Virus record (IMG/VR): IMGVR_UViG_2579778745_000003
Coordinates: 1-27,110 of that record
Direction: 5' to 3' (one strand)
DNA from: a virus
Lineage: Duplodnaviria > Heunggongvirae > Uroviricota > Caudoviricetes
Length of the DNA: 27,110 nt
Positions 12,091 through 17,114 of the stretch are shown piece after piece; the first letter of the stretch is position 1; each line of letters begins with the position of its first letter. The translations under genes were made by a program, and so were the position numbers. The notes below the pieces were generated by a model. That model was given only the letters and a program-made list of their open reading frames with translations, was not told the origin of the DNA and did no database searches.

Positions 12091-12891
12091 TTAGCGCGTT
12101 GCCGCGACAGGTACCAGCACACCAGCATCAAGCAATCGCTTCATCAGCCACTGCTGACCTTTGCCGGTTATACGAGTCGTGAAAGAAATCCTGCTTCCAT
12201 TGCTTGTATCGATCACGGTTTCTTTAAGGGTGAAATACCCACGGGATATGTATTCTTGTTTGGGGACGTTCCTGCGTTCACCGGTTGCGATCAGAATTCC
12301 GTTATCACGCAACCAGGTGAAGAGATAGTTTTGGCCCAGGCCGAGCACTTTGGCATAGTTGCCGATTAGAACTCCGCTGGCGGTAGCAACGCGTTCGGCG
12401 AATTCGACTTTAGGTGCATCCATAAGCATTTTTTGCTCCAGCCGTTGCTTTTGCTCTGCCAGGTCGGCAGCCAAACGGAGAGCTTCAGGGAGACTCTGCG
12501 GAATAGCAGGTTGTAATCTTCCGGCTCGATAGTCGATAAATGTCTGGTTTACCTTCAGCCGAAACGCGGGAGAAATCCAGCCTGCGTACTCCACAGCGAG
12601 CAATTCATGGGCAAAAGTGCCGCCGCCACGGCCTTCGAAAGAAACTATGCAATTCTGCATAGTTTCTTTTTCAAGCTCTTCGATGAGCTGTTTGGCTGAC
12701 AGCGTTCTTAGCCATTGAGCTGGCGCTTTATGGGCACCGAGTCCGCTCGCTCTGTGTAGAGCATTAAGGTTGTAACGGCCAGCGCGGTCGGTCGTAATTT
12801 CAACACCACAAATAACAGGCAGAGTGGTTGAAGGATCGACATTTTGATGAAGGTTTGATATATTCATATCCGCATTGAATGTTTGTTGCAT
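12091..12891 (-). CDS. kilA: KilA: N-terminal KilA-N domain plus C-terminal KilAC (antirepressor-type) domain, 266 aa
   Basis: Domain pattern read from the translation; GGAGA RBS; C1 operator upstream; synteny with repL. Confidence 0.8.
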   Translation of the reverse strand: MQQTFNADMNISNLHQNVDPSTTLPVICGVEITTDRAGRYNLNALHRASGLGAHKAPAQWLRTLSAKQLIEELEKETMQNCIVSFEGRGGGTFAHELLAVEYAGWISPAFRLKVNQTFIDYRAGRLQPAIPQSLPEALRLAADLAEQKQRLEQKMLMDAPKVEFAERVATASGVLIGNYAKVLGLGQNYLFTWLRDNGILIATGERRNVPKQEYISRGYFTLKETVIDTSNGSRISFTTRITGKGQQWLMKRLLDAGVLVPVAATR

Positions 12892-12960: not shown

Positions 12961-12977
12961 AAATTTATTAGAGCAAA
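12961..12977 (-). promoter_or_regulatory. C1 repressor operator Op53-like: TTTGCTCTAATAAATTT on the - strand, 16 of 17 matches to ATTGCTCTAATAAATTT
   Basis: 17-mer read directly, about 70 bp upstream of kilA; the C1 operator consensus is from memory. Confidence 0.75.
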
Positions 12978-13054: not shown

Positions 13055-14098
13055 TTAACCTATTGCTACTGGTTTTAACAAACCAGCATCAAGTAGCTTG
13101 CGAGTTAACCACTGCTGGCCTTTACCCGTTAATTGGGGCGTCAGCCGTATCTGGTAGCCATTTTCATCATCCAGCACCACTTCTTTCACCGTGAAATATC
13201 CGGCGTTGATGTACTGCTGGCGCGGTACGTTTTTGCGCGCACCAAAAGCCATGAGAATGCCGTTCTGGCGCAACCATGAGAAAAGGGCGTTTTGCTTAAG
13301 TCCAACGACCTTTGCAAAGTTCCCGATCAGGATTCCATTAGCCGCTGATACCCGGTCGGCAAAATCGACTTTAGGGGCTGCGGCCACCAGCTGTTGTTCC
13401 AACTGCATTTTCTGTTCTGCCAACTCGGCAGCCAGGCGTAGAGCTTCTGGTAATGTTTGGGGGATCGATGGGGTAGGTGAGTTTGCCTGCTGCAATTCTT
13501 CCAGTTTGTCGATCAGCGAACGGCGGACCGCTTTCGATTCGCGCGCGGCGACTCGCAGGGCTTGTTTGTAGGTCATGGTTATGACAACCATAGGCGTACC
13601 GCCACCTGGCGGCACGGTTGCACTTTTTGTGTAACCGTCCTCACCTTCTAATTCGTCGAGTATTTTTTCGATGAATTTGTTGTTCCGAACCTCTGGTTCC
13701 CCACATAACTTACGCGCTTCATTGACCATCTTTAACAGTGTCAGGCTGTCGATTGTGTCTCCGGTGGTGGGGATGACATTCACGGCTGGTGCTGACGTTG
13801 CTGAAGCAACAGGTGCTGGTTTTTTAACATTCAAATTATTACTGGTCATTCTATGTGCCTCCTTTCTCATTTCTGCTGCCACCGTTGCGTAACGTAGACG
13901 TCCTTGTTCAATCAAATAATCCCTGATCTCGGCTATCAGTAGCCTGTTGATCACAGCCTTATCTGTTCGGGTATAAAAACGCCTGGTTATCATGAAATAG
14001 TTGGCAATTGCGCCGGGGATCTCCCGTGTCGGCATACAGGCAGTATGCAGGGCGATCGCTTCGGCTATTTCATTACGGGTGACGAGAGGTTTTTTCAT
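13055..14098 (-). CDS. ant1: Antirepressor Ant (Ant1; Ant2 would be an internal in-frame start), 347 aa, with C-terminal KilAC domain
   Basis: C-terminal 150 aa clearly paralogous to KilA's; AGGGGG RBS; start overlaps the icd stop (ATGA); immI gene order. Confidence 0.8.
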   Translation of the reverse strand: MKKPLVTRNEIAEAIALHTACMPTREIPGAIANYFMITRRFYTRTDKAVINRLLIAEIRDYLIEQGRLRYATVAAEMRKEAHRMTSNNLNVKKPAPVASATSAPAVNVIPTTGDTIDSLTLLKMVNEARKLCGEPEVRNNKFIEKILDELEGEDGYTKSATVPPGGGTPMVVITMTYKQALRVAARESKAVRRSLIDKLEELQQANSPTPSIPQTLPEALRLAAELAEQKMQLEQQLVAAAPKVDFADRVSAANGILIGNFAKVVGLKQNALFSWLRQNGILMAFGARKNVPRQQYINAGYFTVKEVVLDDENGYQIRLTPQLTGKGQQWLTRKLLDAGLLKPVAIG

Positions 14099-14316
14099 AA
14101 AACCCCCTGAACGTCAGCAGAGAAGGGGAGGTTCCAGTAACTAAGTGAATTGCGCGAGTTAGTAGAAAAACGGGCAGTAAAAATGCAGGGACCATCAGGC
14201 AATTGAGAGCGTGCTTCGTCTTCAGTTGCTGCGATAACGAAGTGATAGTGGTGTTTTTTACAGGAATAGAAACGCCAGATGAATTCTGGGCGTGCGCAAG
14301 GATTGGCATTAACCAT
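14095..14316 (-). CDS. icd: Icd-like small protein (interference with cell division), 73 aa, translationally coupled to ant
   Basis: 73-aa ORF whose stop overlaps the ant start, with GAGG RBS; matches the P1 c4-icd-ant layout. Confidence 0.6.
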   Translation of the reverse strand: MVNANPCARPEFIWRFYSCKKHHYHFVIAATEDEARSQLPDGPCIFTARFSTNSRNSLSYWNLPFSADVQGVL

Positions 14317-14349: not shown

Positions 14350-14560
14350 CTACCCGCTGCTAAACAGGTGGCAGGACGTGACGGGGTTAGCAGACTGGCG
14401 ATTGTGAAACCAGCAGGCCGAAGCCTCCCCATCACGCCCCACCATAATTTGGGCGTAACGCGGTTTTACGGACACAAAAATACCGCAATATCGGATATCT
14501 GCGGCTGTCCGCACAATCATTCAGGCTGCTAAACCCGGTCGCAGAATTTGCTACGACGGC
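14350..14560 (-). ncRNA. c4: c4-type antisense RNA and its target region; exact ends not resolved
   Basis: Between Op51 and icd; GCTGCTAAAC occurs twice on + (14356, 14527) with its complement GTTAGCAG at 14387, as expected for antisense/target elements. Confidence 0.4.
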
Positions 14561-14630
14561 GGAACTATAAGCCTGAACGATTAAAAGGTCAATATGATGC
14601 GAAAAGATAGCATTCGTGACTTAAAAATAC

Positions 14631-14647
14631 AAATTTATTAGAGCATT
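14631..14647 (-). promoter_or_regulatory. C1 repressor operator Op51-like: AATGCTCTAATAAATTT on the - strand, 16 of 17 matches
   Basis: 17-mer read directly at the head of the c4-icd-ant unit. Confidence 0.75.
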
Positions 14648-14743
14648 GTTTGTTTAATAAACGCACAATTGGATCTAATAACCTCTTTTTTTTAAAGGCG
14701 AAAATATGTACCCTAAATGAGTTATAAGGCAGGCGAGGTTATA

Positions 14744-15235
14744 ATGAGAAAACTATTACTACCGTTATTATTTATGGCTGGGACTGTTAATGCAGCATCA
14801 AGCGTAAAGGAGATTTGTACCGATTATACGAAATACCTTGGGCACGTTTACGGATTTGCTGTCAGTGAAGACGAATCCATGCGCAAGAAGTTACTGTCAG
14901 ATATGAAGCGCCTTAAACTTTCTGAAGCGATGGTGCAGCAGGAACTGTATAAAGTCTCAACCAACGCAAATGCTAAATACCAATATTCTCGCCTATTAAA
15001 CCCCGATGCAAATGAGATCAATCGAAGCACTTTCGATTATATGGTAAAGGCATGCGAAACCGCTCCTGATTTTGCTATCCCTAGCTGGGGTGTGCTGGTG
15101 GCGAGCAATGCCGTTAATAAAGAAGATGTTGGAAGAAATGGCATTGACTCAATCAGAAATGCCCCAGGAATGCGCCATCAAAACGTGCAGGGTACGCTTG
15201 AAGAACGAGCCAGGGGGCCGGGTGTAGCTCCATAA
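14744..15235 (+). CDS. Secreted protein of unknown function, 163 aa from ATG 14744 (ORF track start 14717); C-terminus carries a motif shared with Sit
   Basis: Signal peptide MRKLLLPLLFMAGTVNA-AS; GAGG RBS 6 nt upstream of 14744; AT-rich codon usage. Confidence 0.7.
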   Translation: MRKLLLPLLFMAGTVNAASSVKEICTDYTKYLGHVYGFAVSEDESMRKKLLSDMKRLKLSEAMVQQELYKVSTNANAKYQYSRLLNPDANEINRSTFDYMVKACETAPDFAIPSWGVLVASNAVNKEDVGRNGIDSIRNAPGMRHQNVQGTLEERARGPGVAP

Positions 15236-15323
15236 TTTAATGAATAATATTAAATTCTCTGGGCATAGTGGATCTAACAATATGGACTATGCCTATAATA
15301 TCTAAAACAAAAAGGATAAAAAT

Positions 15324-15830
15324 ATGAAATTATATAAGTCATTGTATAGCTTTTTATTAATGTCCTCTTTTCTGCCATTATCAGCAATGGCAGGTTCTAC
15401 CGTTTGGACGGTAGGAGGTGAGCAAGGGTGGAGAGAAATCTCTGCAACCAATGACGATGGTTATACAATTAACTTTTCTTGTGATGCTGGAGCAAGGGAA
15501 GGTTCCGAAGATCATATAGCTGGAAGAAATTTGTATGTAAGTGGAGGGAAAGAGAATGCTGATTTTTCTACACGCGACACAATTTCTCGTAAAGCTGATG
15601 TAATTACCTTAATTGTTGGTCCGGATAGCTTTAATATTGGTACGCAAAACACTGCTCCAAATCGTAGGGAATGGTATTCTTTTTGGAAGTCAGCGTCAGC
15701 CACAAAAGAAAAAAACATGGATGTATATATCGGATCGCGTCGAATTACATCATTCTCTCTTGATGGAATTTCAAGTATTTACAAGGAAGCTAAAAATGAT
15801 GGATGTTTAAAGCAAGATGACGGTGAATAA
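15324..15830 (+). CDS. Secreted protein with two Cys, unknown function, 168 aa
   Basis: Signal peptide MKLYKSLYSFLLMSSFLPLSAMA-GS; AAGGA RBS. Confidence 0.7.
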   Translation: MKLYKSLYSFLLMSSFLPLSAMAGSTVWTVGGEQGWREISATNDDGYTINFSCDAGAREGSEDHIAGRNLYVSGGKENADFSTRDTISRKADVITLIVGPDSFNIGTQNTAPNRREWYSFWKSASATKEKNMDVYIGSRRITSFSLDGISSIYKEAKNDGCLKQDDGE

Positions 15831-17001
15831 AGTGAAGGATATTAAAAAACTTGCACTTGGCTCAGTAAGCGATCTCTATAATAGAGATTCAAATATTACC
15901 TGGCGTGATAATTTAAGTAAAATCAAAATCGCAGGATATACATCGGCAAGTGATTTATTAAAATCAGAATATGCTTCTAATAATTTGGTTAGACAGTTGG
16001 CAGAACTGCAAAAAAACGCAATCATTCCATCGTATAGAGAACATATGGCAAACTTGCAAGAACAGTTAAGAATAGGGCGGCTAGCTCAAGAACAAATAGC
16101 AAGATTGAATTTGCAATCGTTACTTAGTGATTCTGTTAAAAAACAGCTTGCGAACATGACGAGCTTGAGAAGAATAAATAGCAAGCATCGTGAATTTCTT
16201 GAAATTCTACAGAAACAGGCCAAGGTTTATCCCCCGCATGATGCAAATAAATACATTCAAATGCTAAGGAAGCAGGCAGAAATTGCTATGCCGTTACGAA
16301 ACCAGTTCGAGATGCTTAATAAGCAAGCTGGTTTAAATAACATGCAAGCAATACTTAATGAATTGCGACAAAATGTAAGTCATAAGATAGATTTAAACAA
16401 TGAAATAAAAGAATCATTAAAACAATATACCCTAGCGCAAAAGGCTTCATTACATCAAATAATGGAGCAAAGTCTTTCATCAATTGCACAGGCTTATGTC
16501 GAAGGTGCTATTGAAACATCTCACAACGAAAGTGATGTTCAAGACAAAGGATTAAATAAATCCAGTTCGACGTTCATTGATTCATTTAAGTCGCTCCCTC
16601 ACCCGCTTCAGTTTATTATTATGTGGCTTTTAACAGAAGTGGTGCTTGGCGCTATTGCTGATTATGCAAAAGAACAAATCTTATCGCAAATACACAAGAC
16701 AGAATCATATTCTGTATCCCTATATGAGGATGCACCAATATCAAAACAAAAATTAATTAAAGAAAACACAGAAATTAAGTGGGAAGATCTCAATGGTTTT
16801 AGGTTTATAACTGGTGATAACGTAAGATTACATGTCAGTCCTTCTTTAAATAGTGAAGTGATTGAATGCATTGGCAAAAACACAATTGTTGCTATTTTAG
16901 ATAAGAAAGATCGTCAATGGCTTTACGTGCAGGTTAAATCAGGGGATGAGTTTATTACTGGTTGGATTACACGAACATACACAAAGCCTCTTAAGGCTTG
17001 A
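15817..17001 (+). CDS. Coiled-coil protein with one hydrophobic segment and a C-terminal bacterial SH3 (SH3b)-like domain, 394 aa
   Basis: Repeated LxKQA heptad-like segments; hydrophobic LQFIIMWLLTEVVLGAIA; C-terminus ...GWITRTY resembles SH3b; overlaps the previous gene by 14 nt. Confidence 0.65.
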   Translation: MTVNKVKDIKKLALGSVSDLYNRDSNITWRDNLSKIKIAGYTSASDLLKSEYASNNLVRQLAELQKNAIIPSYREHMANLQEQLRIGRLAQEQIARLNLQSLLSDSVKKQLANMTSLRRINSKHREFLEILQKQAKVYPPHDANKYIQMLRKQAEIAMPLRNQFEMLNKQAGLNNMQAILNELRQNVSHKIDLNNEIKESLKQYTLAQKASLHQIMEQSLSSIAQAYVEGAIETSHNESDVQDKGLNKSSSTFIDSFKSLPHPLQFIIMWLLTEVVLGAIADYAKEQILSQIHKTESYSVSLYEDAPISKQKLIKENTEIKWEDLNGFRFITGDNVRLHVSPSLNSEVIECIGKNTIVAILDKKDRQWLYVQVKSGDEFITGWITRTYTKPLKA

Positions 17002-17114
17002 ATTTTATCTCCGCATCTTCGGATTGGGTGTTGATGACGATGTGCTACTTGAAGCACTTGAGTTGTTTTAACGTAGTATCTGAAATGTGTAGACTGACCG
17101 GTAACAAATGACAA

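Follow-up and report, generated by a model that had tools for sequence, protein, structure and literature searches.

The DNA analysed here, hereafter called the window, is a stretch of 27,110 nucleotides (nt) from the IMG/VR virus record IMGVR_UViG_2579778745_000003, which belongs to a P1-like (Punavirus) phage-plasmid and is near-identical to the Escherichia coli plasmid NZ_CP148988.1. Our analysis concerns three of its open reading frames, hereafter abbreviated as ORF1, ORF2 and ORF3 (table 1), the products of which all appear to be envelope proteins, as supported by their sequences, and which could plausibly, if tentatively, act in the cell envelope against the tape-measure/transglycosylase protein Sit and so keep the DNA of superinfecting P1-like phages from entering. 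We favour this reading because of the logic of the locus, the export of all products, a Sit-like peptide in ORF1 and the linkage of the gene set to one allele of the SLT (lytic transglycosylase) domain of Sit. The exclusion or defence role that the original prediction, made from the letters of the sequence, had proposed for this cassette is thus one that we also infer. That prediction had further given the positions and the + strand of the three genes, had set them beside the C1 operator Op51 and the c4-icd-ant unit, and had assigned them to the place where P1 carries sim, all of which was borne out by the ORF list, Rfam and an operator scan. Coordinates, orientation and sim position were right since the homology of the window to P1 DNA stops at 14883 and is back at 17103, with simA (encoding 52 amino acids, aa), simB and simC lying in between in P1; the slot is exactly that of simA-simB-simC, in the same orientation, between Op51/c4 and LPsit/pmgC. 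The sim region of P1 is annotated, and cited in the titles of the literature, as superimmunity or superinfection exclusion, its genes are low in G+C and non-essential, and both SimB and SimC begin with a hydrophobic, signal-like sequence. Sim undergoes processing, and its block to infection acts at a stage later than adsorption. The simABC genes are dispensable for P1 growth (PMC10695390), and the sim region is one of eight low-G+C hypervariable regions in P1-like phage-plasmids (PMC9603915).

The relation to P1 resides in ORF1. The whole 52-aa P1 SimA is 92% identical to residues 1-51 of ORF1 (BLASTP, E 6e-33) when the latter is read from an upstream ATG at 14717, giving a protein of 172 aa; from the ATG at 14744, which is preceded by a ribosome-binding site (GAGG) at a distance of 6 nt, it has 163 aa. 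The original prediction had left undecided whether the three proteins are Sim homologues or a replacement, and had held that clear full-length homology of all three would make them known biology. Homology is found only between ORF1 and SimA, that is for one third of one gene, and ORF2 and ORF3 are a replacement with no similarity to SimB or SimC: no BLASTP match to P1 SimC, to which the annotation ascribes superimmunity, was obtained with ORF1, ORF2 or ORF3 at E <= 1, and the single match to SimB is a chance-level one with ORF3 (25% identity over 36 aa, E 0.97). ORF1 also matches the profile phrog_3933 (E 2e-113) over positions 1-162 of 213, with the C-terminal tail absent, and over 161 aa it shares 96% identity with gp35, a 215-aa protein of phage vB_EcoM-Ro157c2YLVW, hereafter Ro157c2YLVW. 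Proteins of the phrog_3933 family, named 'simA domain protein' by NCBI, have lengths of about 190-246 aa. Since the ORF1 family extends beyond the 51 codons of SimA, P1 simA is the 5' stump of this periplasmic family, and ORF1 is part of the resident locus, in a SimA-family version that lacks only the variable C-terminal tail.

By inspection, ORF1 begins with a Sec-type signal peptide at aa 1-17 (MRKLLLPLLFMAGTVNA, with a predicted cut after VNA and before A), followed by a conserved domain of ~105 aa with two invariant cysteines and then by a linker. The family alignment shows C25 and C104 to be invariant and N139 nearly so; the linker core N-[AS]-[PR]-G-M-R-[HQ]-Q is present in nearly all intact members, and GMR or G[MV]R in nearly all those that are not frameshifted. 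ORF1 has matches in 267 of the 509 P1-like plasmids counted in PLSDB, 126 of which reach at least 80% coverage; among the matches listed, the lower-ranked ones cover aa 1-48 only, like the P1 stump. An assignment of ORF1 to the PTP-like phytases (PF14566) was rejected, as the score of 25.2 bits lies below the cut-off of 27 and the sole candidate Cys context, C-E-T-A-P-D-F, has no Arg at +6, so that the C-x5-R loop is missing.

The conserved peptide of the ORF1 family, NAPGMRHQ.VQGTLEERARG, also sits just after the SLT domain of Sit. Within the window the peptide of ORF1 is 51% identical to Sit aa 917-953 (BLASTP, E 7e-8) and additionally matches Sit aa 987-1006, and it matches the Sit profile phrog_2533 with an E-value of 1.8e-5. 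The same relation is seen in Klebsiella aerogenes, between SDEFQNAPGMRHQKVEGSLMERARGPG of the SimA-family protein and ADKFLNAPGMRHQAVQGTLAERAYGKG of Sit (E 2e-8), and in a third independent phage lineage, that of Salmonella, between the SimA-family and Sit peptides (E 1e-3). Identical residues are encoded by identical codons in 7/16, 6/18 and 4/11 cases, and nucleotide identity is 0.45-0.63. Because the shared residues mostly use different codons, the likeness seems to be old and kept at the protein level, and recent gene conversion was rejected as its origin on the same grounds. The core of the peptide occurs once in ORF1, twice in Sit and nowhere else in the six-frame translation of the window, and among 50,697 phage records it is found in P1-like phages only. 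Its counterpart in Sit (motif 1 in table 1) is conserved in the Sit proteins of P1-like elements from Escherichia, Klebsiella and Salmonella and almost invariant within the E. coli lineage. The second copy in Sit of the E. coli lineage (motif 2, a degenerate tandem copy of the form ...DK[FL].N..GMR...) is located within an insertion of ~60 aa that is absent from the Klebsiella and Salmonella proteins; it has two main alleles, RNSPGMRKNN and INARGMRSNN, and varies more than any other spot in the C-terminal quarter of Sit, which is near-identical elsewhere. The segment of Sit that follows the SLT domain would reach the periplasm, which is also where ORF1 is predicted to be.

A further link to Sit is provided by its SLT module, which in the window is a swapped, rare allele: residues ~690-880 are 26-44% identical to those of P1 Sit, the rest of the protein is 96-100% identical, and the module lies in a dip of G+C (0.41-0.43). 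Pfam places the SLT domain of the window's Sit at aa 738-843 (E 1.7e-14); that of P1 Sit is at about 750-900 (PMC9024508). For comparison, 80 P1-like loci were taken from IMG/VR via PmgB, and 68 with a complete locus were classified by the genes in the sim slot. The rare SLT allele is present in 7 of the 10 loci of the window type versus 2 of 53 other classified loci (Fisher p = 7e-6, uncorrected for ancestry), and of the 509 P1-like plasmids in PLSDB, 61 have DNA of the rare SLT allele and 35 have window-type ORF2 DNA, with 33 of these 35 belonging to the former group as well. The pairs of cassette and rare SLT allele include three different alleles of the SH3 gene (ORF3) and, in a neighbour-joining tree built from the intervening 4.1-kb backbone and blurred by recombination, are scattered over three or more positions. 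Exceptions to the link are the loci L076, L087, L089, L031 and L078.

The 68 loci fall into six types, all of which encode only exported or membrane proteins: the simA stump of P1 with simB and simC (type A, 14 loci); the P7-type genes Upf50.5 and Upf50.0 (type B, 16 loci); a SimA-family gene with a YfjT gene of the kind found in Ro157c2YLVW, hereafter Ro type (type C, 20 loci); the window type (type D, 10/68 loci), the SH3 alleles of which are 99, 89, 80, 76 and 53% identical to that of the window; a 116-aa polytopic membrane protein with a third YfjT allele and an SH3 gene (type E, 5 loci); and the third YfjT allele with no SH3 gene (type F, 3 loci). The DNA of the window's cassette has matches in 62 plasmids of PLSDB, and of 5,426 complete E. 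coli genomes 70 contain it. Two window-type loci (L076 and L087), both with the P1-type SLT allele, measure 4157-4174 bp and appear to hold an extra insertion in the sim locus, since they are about 1.3 kb longer than the others. The 116-aa protein of type E (L008 7077-7427, and also in the plasmids of L008-L010) has three or four hydrophobic helices, stands in place of the SimA-family gene and is followed by the third YfjT allele and then by an SH3 protein of 344 aa. P7 has two signal-peptide proteins in the same slot, with sequences unrelated to those of the window. Its upf50.5 (L011 1930-2451) is annotated as an outer-membrane lipoprotein and mislabelled 'DNA methyltransferase' in RefSeq; the likeness of its product to TraT, annotated as an enterobacterial complement-resistance lipoprotein, is sub-threshold (E 7e-5, 23 bits against a cut-off of 31). 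A relation of the YfjT family to Upf50.0 or Upf50.5 was considered and rejected, as only the signal peptides align (hhalign in the case of Upf50.0).

ORF2 (168 aa) is predicted to be a periplasmic protein of the YfjT/YkfB family (PF27224), and RefSeq labels it 'YfjT/YkfB family phage-associated protein'. Its signal peptide covers aa 1-23 (MKLYKSLYSFLLMSSFLPLSAMA, by inspection cut after AMA and before G), so that the expectation of two signal-peptide proteins holds, ORF1 and ORF2 both having Sec-type signals. The precomputed PF27224 assignment is carried by its 99%-identical cluster and by syntenic homologues, with a mature domain of about 130 aa; ORF2 also matches phrog_3429 (E 2e-70), and W28, G35, C53, W117 and C161 are invariant in the family alignment. 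It is 27% identical to YfjT of E. coli K-12 (E 2e-5), 28% to YfjT of Ro157c2YLVW and 26-29% to other YfjT alleles of P1-like elements. In distant P1-like elements of K. aerogenes and Salmonella the slot between ant/icd and pmgC is filled by a SimA-family gene and a YfjT gene and nothing else, and a 50%-identical relative of ORF2 directly precedes pmgC with no SH3 gene. The AlphaFold2 model of ORF2, with a predicted local distance difference test score (pLDDT) of 84.7 and a predicted template modelling score of 0.77, has a beta-sheet domain and two helices. Searches of the PDB gave no match to the folds of lysozyme or transglycosylase inhibitors (Ivy, MliC/PliC, PliG, PliI, T4 Spackle), a function for which ORF2 was considered and rejected, and a fold search of BFVD returned only family members or uncharacterised proteins. 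The K-12 homologues YfjT and YkfB, of the cryptic prophages CP4-57 and CP4-6, resemble ORF2 in their signal peptide and conserved Cys and Trp positions. In CP4-57, too, yfjT is preceded by envelope genes, ypjK for a small membrane protein and yfjS for an inner-membrane lipoprotein, a clustering of envelope-protein genes around YfjT like that seen here. The trio (L097 10446-11616) shares its cryptic prophage with the anti-phage genes abpAB and the toxin-antitoxin genes rnlAB, which are a few kb away.

ORF3 has 394 aa from the ATG at 15817, or 389 aa from a GTG at 15832, and matches phrog_7086 with an E-value of 1.5e-199. It was described in the original prediction as a coiled-coil protein with an SH3b-like end, and in agreement its N-terminal ~255 aa consist of predicted helices with six degenerate h-x-K-Q-A units and no signal peptide, and a match to SH3_3 just short of the cut-off is seen at the C-terminus (table 1); PF08239 is also precomputed on its 99%-identical cluster representative and on most homologues. 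The hydrophobic helix at aa 263-285, the block of which is conserved across the family, had been overlooked. We deduce a topology with the N-terminus inside and the SH3b domain in the periplasm from the long N-terminal part without signal peptide and the usual peptidoglycan-binding role of SH3b. The relatives of ORF3 show clean tandem repeats of ~13, 19 or 25 aa in varying copy number. The N-terminus is variable in the family and the C-terminal ~110 aa are strongly conserved, with 30 of 32 invariant columns in aa 322-390; for the N-terminal part the ratio of nonsynonymous to synonymous substitution rates (dN/dS) comes to 0.44-0.75, for the C-terminal part to 0.05-0.33. The AlphaFold2 model built with 22 sequences is poor (pLDDT 40), and its five or six beta-strands at aa 328-384 are of low confidence. 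Among 5.8 billion clusters 47 relatives were retrieved at E <= 0.001, mostly on contigs of about 90-100 kb, the named ones being from Escherichia, Citrobacter, Salmonella, Pseudocitrobacter and Yersinia; a tblastn search of 50,697 phage records gave no match. The family resides in plasmid-annotated P1-like elements. Only two loci with ORF3 were found in species-representative genomes, one of them on a contig that is probably mis-binned. A 2.8-kb contig (L099, DXHF01000172.1) in a metagenome-assembled genome named 'Candidatus Paenibacillus intestinavium' encodes a protein 76% identical to ORF3 and is almost certainly a mis-binned fragment of an enterobacterial P1-like element. Distant members are solitary genes on the strand opposite to their neighbours, at another site in DarB-bearing elements of Citrobacter and Salmonella, with a G+C of 0.36 versus 0.49; ORF3 is accordingly an autonomous 'moron' that in the window was added behind YfjT.

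The base composition modifies the original view of an AT-rich cassette of three genes. Computed G+C is 0.381 for ORF2 (0.27 at third codon positions), 0.350 for ORF3 (0.29 at third codon positions) and 0.25 for the spacer at 15236-15323, against 0.475 for the backbone, so that the description fits ORF2 and ORF3, within 15224-17102 only; it does not fit ORF1, the G+C of which (0.447) is close to that of the backbone. The part homologous to Ro157c2YLVW stops at 15223, within the final codons of ORF1, and homology to both Ro157c2YLVW and P1 resumes at 17095-17103. No direct or inverted repeats flank the insert at 15224-17102, and transposon-like ends were therefore rejected. The 14-nt overlap reported between ORF2 and ORF3 exists with the ATG at 15817 and disappears with the RefSeq start, GTG 15832, which is placed 1 nt past the stop of ORF2; under either start the two genes are closely coupled. 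A single cassette or operon of three genes is too simple a picture, as ORF1 is a resident gene and both YfjT genes without SH3 and lone SH3 genes exist, and the set is a composite rather than one mobile unit. The dN/dS values (0.11-0.12 for ORF1 and 0.08-0.12 for ORF2, which are strongly purifying, and 0.35-0.60 for ORF3) indicate that all three are real genes. As had been noted from the sequence, none of them has a catalytic motif: Pfam, NCBIfam, PHROGs and PADLOC give no catalytic domain. NCBIfam yields nothing meaningful for the three proteins, the three PHROGs families matched are all of unknown function, and searches of PDB sequences with the profiles of all three families gave chance-level matches only.

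Table 1. Positions in the window of ORF1-ORF3, of the related segments of Sit and of neighbouring features.
Feature	Coordinates	Strand	Details
ORF1	14744-15235 (14717 with upstream ATG)	+	SimA-family gene
Sit-like peptide in ORF1	15134-15223	+	aa 131-160, GIDSIRNAPGMRHQNVQGTLEERARGPG; BLASTP and profile match to Sit
ORF2	15324-15830	+	YfjT/YkfB-family gene
ORF3	15817-17001 (GTG start 15832 in RefSeq)	+	SH3b gene
Predicted transmembrane helix of ORF3	16603-16671	+	aa 263-285, PLQFIIMWLLTEVVLGAIADYAK; Kyte-Doolittle 19-residue mean 1.83, sole such peak
SH3b (SH3_3, PF08239) of ORF3	16816-16980	+	aa 334-388; E 1.1e-5, 26.0 bits versus cut-off 27
Low-G+C insert with ORF2 and ORF3	15224-17102	+	G+C 0.358
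Sit SLT (lytic transglycosylase) module, swapped rare allele	21389-21961	+	aa ~690-880; windowed identity to P1 Sit
Sit motif 1	22070-22180	+	aa 917-953, ...NKFMNGRGMRREVVQGTLEERARGKG...; just C-terminal of SLT domain, counterpart of ORF1 peptide
Sit motif 2	22280-22339	+	aa 987-1006, GIDGLFDKLRNSPGMRKNNA; degenerate second copy, E. coli lineage only
kilA	12091-12891	-	left of ORF1-ORF3
ant1	13055-14098	-	upstream of ORF1
icd	14095-14316	-	upstream of ORF1
C4 antisense RNA, divergent immI unit	14364-14449	-	Rfam RF01695, 69.6 bits
a1b1 targets of C4 RNA	14518-14570	-	Rfam RF03163
C1 repressor operator Op51 (Oc4)	14631-14647	-	one mismatch to ATTGCTCTAATAAATTT; directly 5' of predicted ORF1 promoter region
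Late promoter LPsit	17106-17124	+	AAATGACAA ... TAGAAT; collinear with annotated P1 LPsit, drives pmgC-tub-pmgB-sit

On the immI side, Op51 corresponds to the site annotated in P1 as 'Oc4 / former Op51', and two C1 operator sites occur within the window versus 0.12 expected by chance, the second being Op53 at 12961-12977, between kilA and ant1. KilA and Ant1 have near-alike C-terminal halves (from LPEALRLAA[DE]LAEQK to the end), by which they are paralogues, and Pfam finds ANT on both in related loci. On the other side, the position of LPsit downstream of the cassette places the latter outside the late tail operon. An inverted repeat of 17 nt (17109-17125 and 17139-17155, 88% complementary, with a 13-nt loop) covers the -10 element of LPsit and the ribosome-binding region of pmgC and might fold into a hairpin within the leader at the 5' end of the late tail mRNA. 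Scans for promoters and terminators were indecisive, with fewer promoter-like sites than in shuffled sequences; one weak hairpin resembling a terminator was located at 16984-16999, where ORF3 ends.

If the three genes do block DNA entry by way of Sit, the block would act in the periplasm or at the inner membrane, interfering with the incoming Sit protein. Transcription would start from the conserved promoter region beside Op51 and run away from immI, apart from the late tail operon, as in the layout observed; ORF1 and ORF2 would be exported by Sec, and ORF3 would be inserted such that its repeat-rich N-terminal part remains in the cytoplasm while the SH3b domain faces the periplasm, where it would probably sit on peptidoglycan. 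ORF1 would present the post-SLT peptide of Sit, to which its observed sequence is related, on a disulfide-stabilised periplasmic domain, and it would compete with, or poison, what that segment has to bind once ejected, be it a host partner, peptidoglycan, Sit or the latter's SLT domain. ORF2 and ORF3 would be further, separable envelope factors, and ORF2 may match the SLT allele of the resident Sit, as the association in populations suggests. Since the Sit segment would enter the compartment predicted for ORF1, a decoy or dominant-negative action of the latter comes to mind. A bolder version, which we regard as unlikely, is exclusion by mimicry of the phage's own tape measure, in which ORF1 would be such a decoy or dominant-negative form, ORF2 would be matched to the SLT allele of the resident Sit, with cassette and SLT module as a co-evolving pair, and P1 simA would be a fossil of the ancestral system, displaced by simBC.

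Several observations weigh against a Sit-directed entry block. ORF1 of the window lacks the C-terminal ~45 aa of the full-length family, and the motif of the SimA-family proteins of E. coli, NAPGMRHQ, is nearer to that of Klebsiella Sit than to that of their own Sit (NGRGMRRE). Within the E. coli lineage cassette type and Sit motif variants show no covariation, both alleles of motif 2 occurring with all types. The YfjT allele of L008, very different from that of the Ro type (36% identity), is nevertheless accompanied by the same P1-type SLT domain, and the link between cassette and SLT allele, uncorrected for ancestry, may reflect co-selection or plain linkage over about 5 kb. Neither PADLOC nor comparison with SimB and SimC revealed homology of ORF1-ORF3 to characterised exclusion or defence proteins; in PADLOC-DB v2 there was no match for ORF1 and ORF2 and only a chance-level one to Csx1 for ORF3 (E 0.12). 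Moreover, the three proteins need not act together, since SH3 and YfjT genes occur independently of each other.

Other functions have to be considered for the same proteins. Lysogenic conversion unrelated to phages could involve envelope traits such as adhesion or invasion, serum or stress resistance and peptidoglycan remodelling, to the benefit of carriers among E. coli, Salmonella and E. albertii, many of them Shiga toxin-producing, avian pathogenic or uropathogenic E. coli isolates. This appears improbable, as the structural matches are weak, the families of ORF1 and ORF3 hardly occur outside P1-like elements and the motif ties ORF1 to a phage protein. Neither the Sit-like peptide nor the association with the SLT allele would be accounted for. 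A distinctly improbable alternative is abortive infection, in which the SH3b domain of ORF3 would sense the damage done to peptidoglycan by the incoming tail transglycosylase and then, by way of the membrane helix and the cytoplasmic repeat domain, arrest or kill the cell, with ORF1 and ORF2 as modulators. The architecture of ORF3, in which a single predicted transmembrane helix would connect the repeat domain in the cytoplasm with the conserved SH3b domain in the periplasm, would suit such a sensor, as would the fast evolution and variable repeat number of its N-terminal domain and its occurrence as an autonomous, also solitary, low-G+C moron; however, Pfam, NCBIfam, PHROGs and PADLOC show neither an effector domain nor similarity to known abortive-infection proteins, and the topology is deduced for a protein the structural model of which is unreliable.

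The peptide common to ORF1 and Sit and the linkage to the SLT allele could also be expected if the genes served the lytic cycle of their own phage, in the timing of lysis, protection from lysis from without, maturation of the tail or Sit, or injection of its own DNA, with no barrier to other phages. The cassette lies directly upstream of the pmgC-tub-pmgB-sit tail operon, and Op51 by its promoter region might make it an early, C1-repressed unit. To this explanation we would nevertheless give a very small chance: LPsit is situated downstream of the cassette, unrelated genes replace the locus in viable phages, simABC is non-essential in P1, and ORF1 and ORF2 are predicted to be exported while tails are assembled in the cytoplasm. 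The least probable explanation considered here is decay and hitch-hiking, by which ORF1 would be a remnant, its Sit-like peptide the product of an old illegitimate recombination with sit, and the SLT linkage clonal. Insertions have indeed cut the ORF1 family at differing points (52 aa in P1, 163 aa in the window, 215 aa in Ro157c2YLVW), frameshifted variants are present in assemblies, and the lack of covariation between cassette and Sit motif would be expected. Against it stand the low dN/dS of ORF1 and ORF2, the conservation of the peptide core across genera despite saturated synonymous change, the presence of the same ORF1 allele in more than 20 plasmids and the recurrence of type D with the window's SLT allele in at least three places on the backbone tree.

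The proposed action of ORF1-ORF3 at the envelope can be compared with known exclusion systems. T4 Spackle (gp61.3) is a small periplasmic protein of the resident phage that inhibits the tail peptidoglycan hydrolase of the superinfecting phage, the gp5 lysozyme (PMC7677548, PMC7650644). Its logic is that proposed here for ORF1 and ORF2 with respect to the SLT region of Sit, but there is no sequence relation and the PDB searches with ORF2 gave no Spackle-like fold. HK97 gp15 and Ltp of TP-J34 are membrane proteins that act at genome injection by the same logic as SieA of P22. SieA is a membrane exclusion protein that engages ejection proteins at genome injection (PMC10883804), and SNIPE is a membrane protein acting at injection against tape-measure proteins (PMC13190303). 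SieA, HK97 gp15, Ltp and SNIPE, which are encoded by prophages or hosts, have no homology to ORF1-ORF3, and SNIPE is a nuclease whereas no nuclease is present here. To our knowledge none of these four carries a copy of the segment that it targets. Within the sim slot itself, P1 SimC has no Sit-like peptide, and P1 has no counterpart of the membrane-anchored SH3b protein of the ORF3 type.

Hypervariability and low G+C of the sim region were already known, and the cassette is present in dozens of database records under the names 'simA domain protein', 'YfjT/YkfB family phage-associated protein' or 'hypothetical protein', and 'SH3 domain-containing protein'. The interpretation of simA as a stump, the catalogue of six cassettes, the Sit-like peptide and the SLT linkage are new as far as the literature found goes, with simA and Sit jointly not covered. 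P1 has long served as a workhorse phage, and resistance genes in Enterobacteriaceae are commonly carried by phage-plasmids of its kind. We know of no work since the studies of the 1980s in which the mechanism of the sim block to DNA entry was worked out, nor of an explanation for simA. Should the present leads fail, the cassette would be one more uncharacterised accessory set in a known hypervariable region. By our results simA is the stump of a widespread periplasmic protein, at a locus where six or more sets of envelope proteins replace one another. Those formed by SimA-family and YfjT genes, which are the commonest, have a conserved peptide in common with Sit, and the window-type set travels with a swapped SLT domain. 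If mimicry were true, it would be the first case of exclusion that relies on a copied piece of an injected tape-measure protein, and would provide a function for the YfjT/YkfB family of E. coli cryptic prophages. The locus may thus offer a lead on how phage DNA crosses the Gram-negative envelope, and an initial clue to what the YfjT/YkfB y-genes do.

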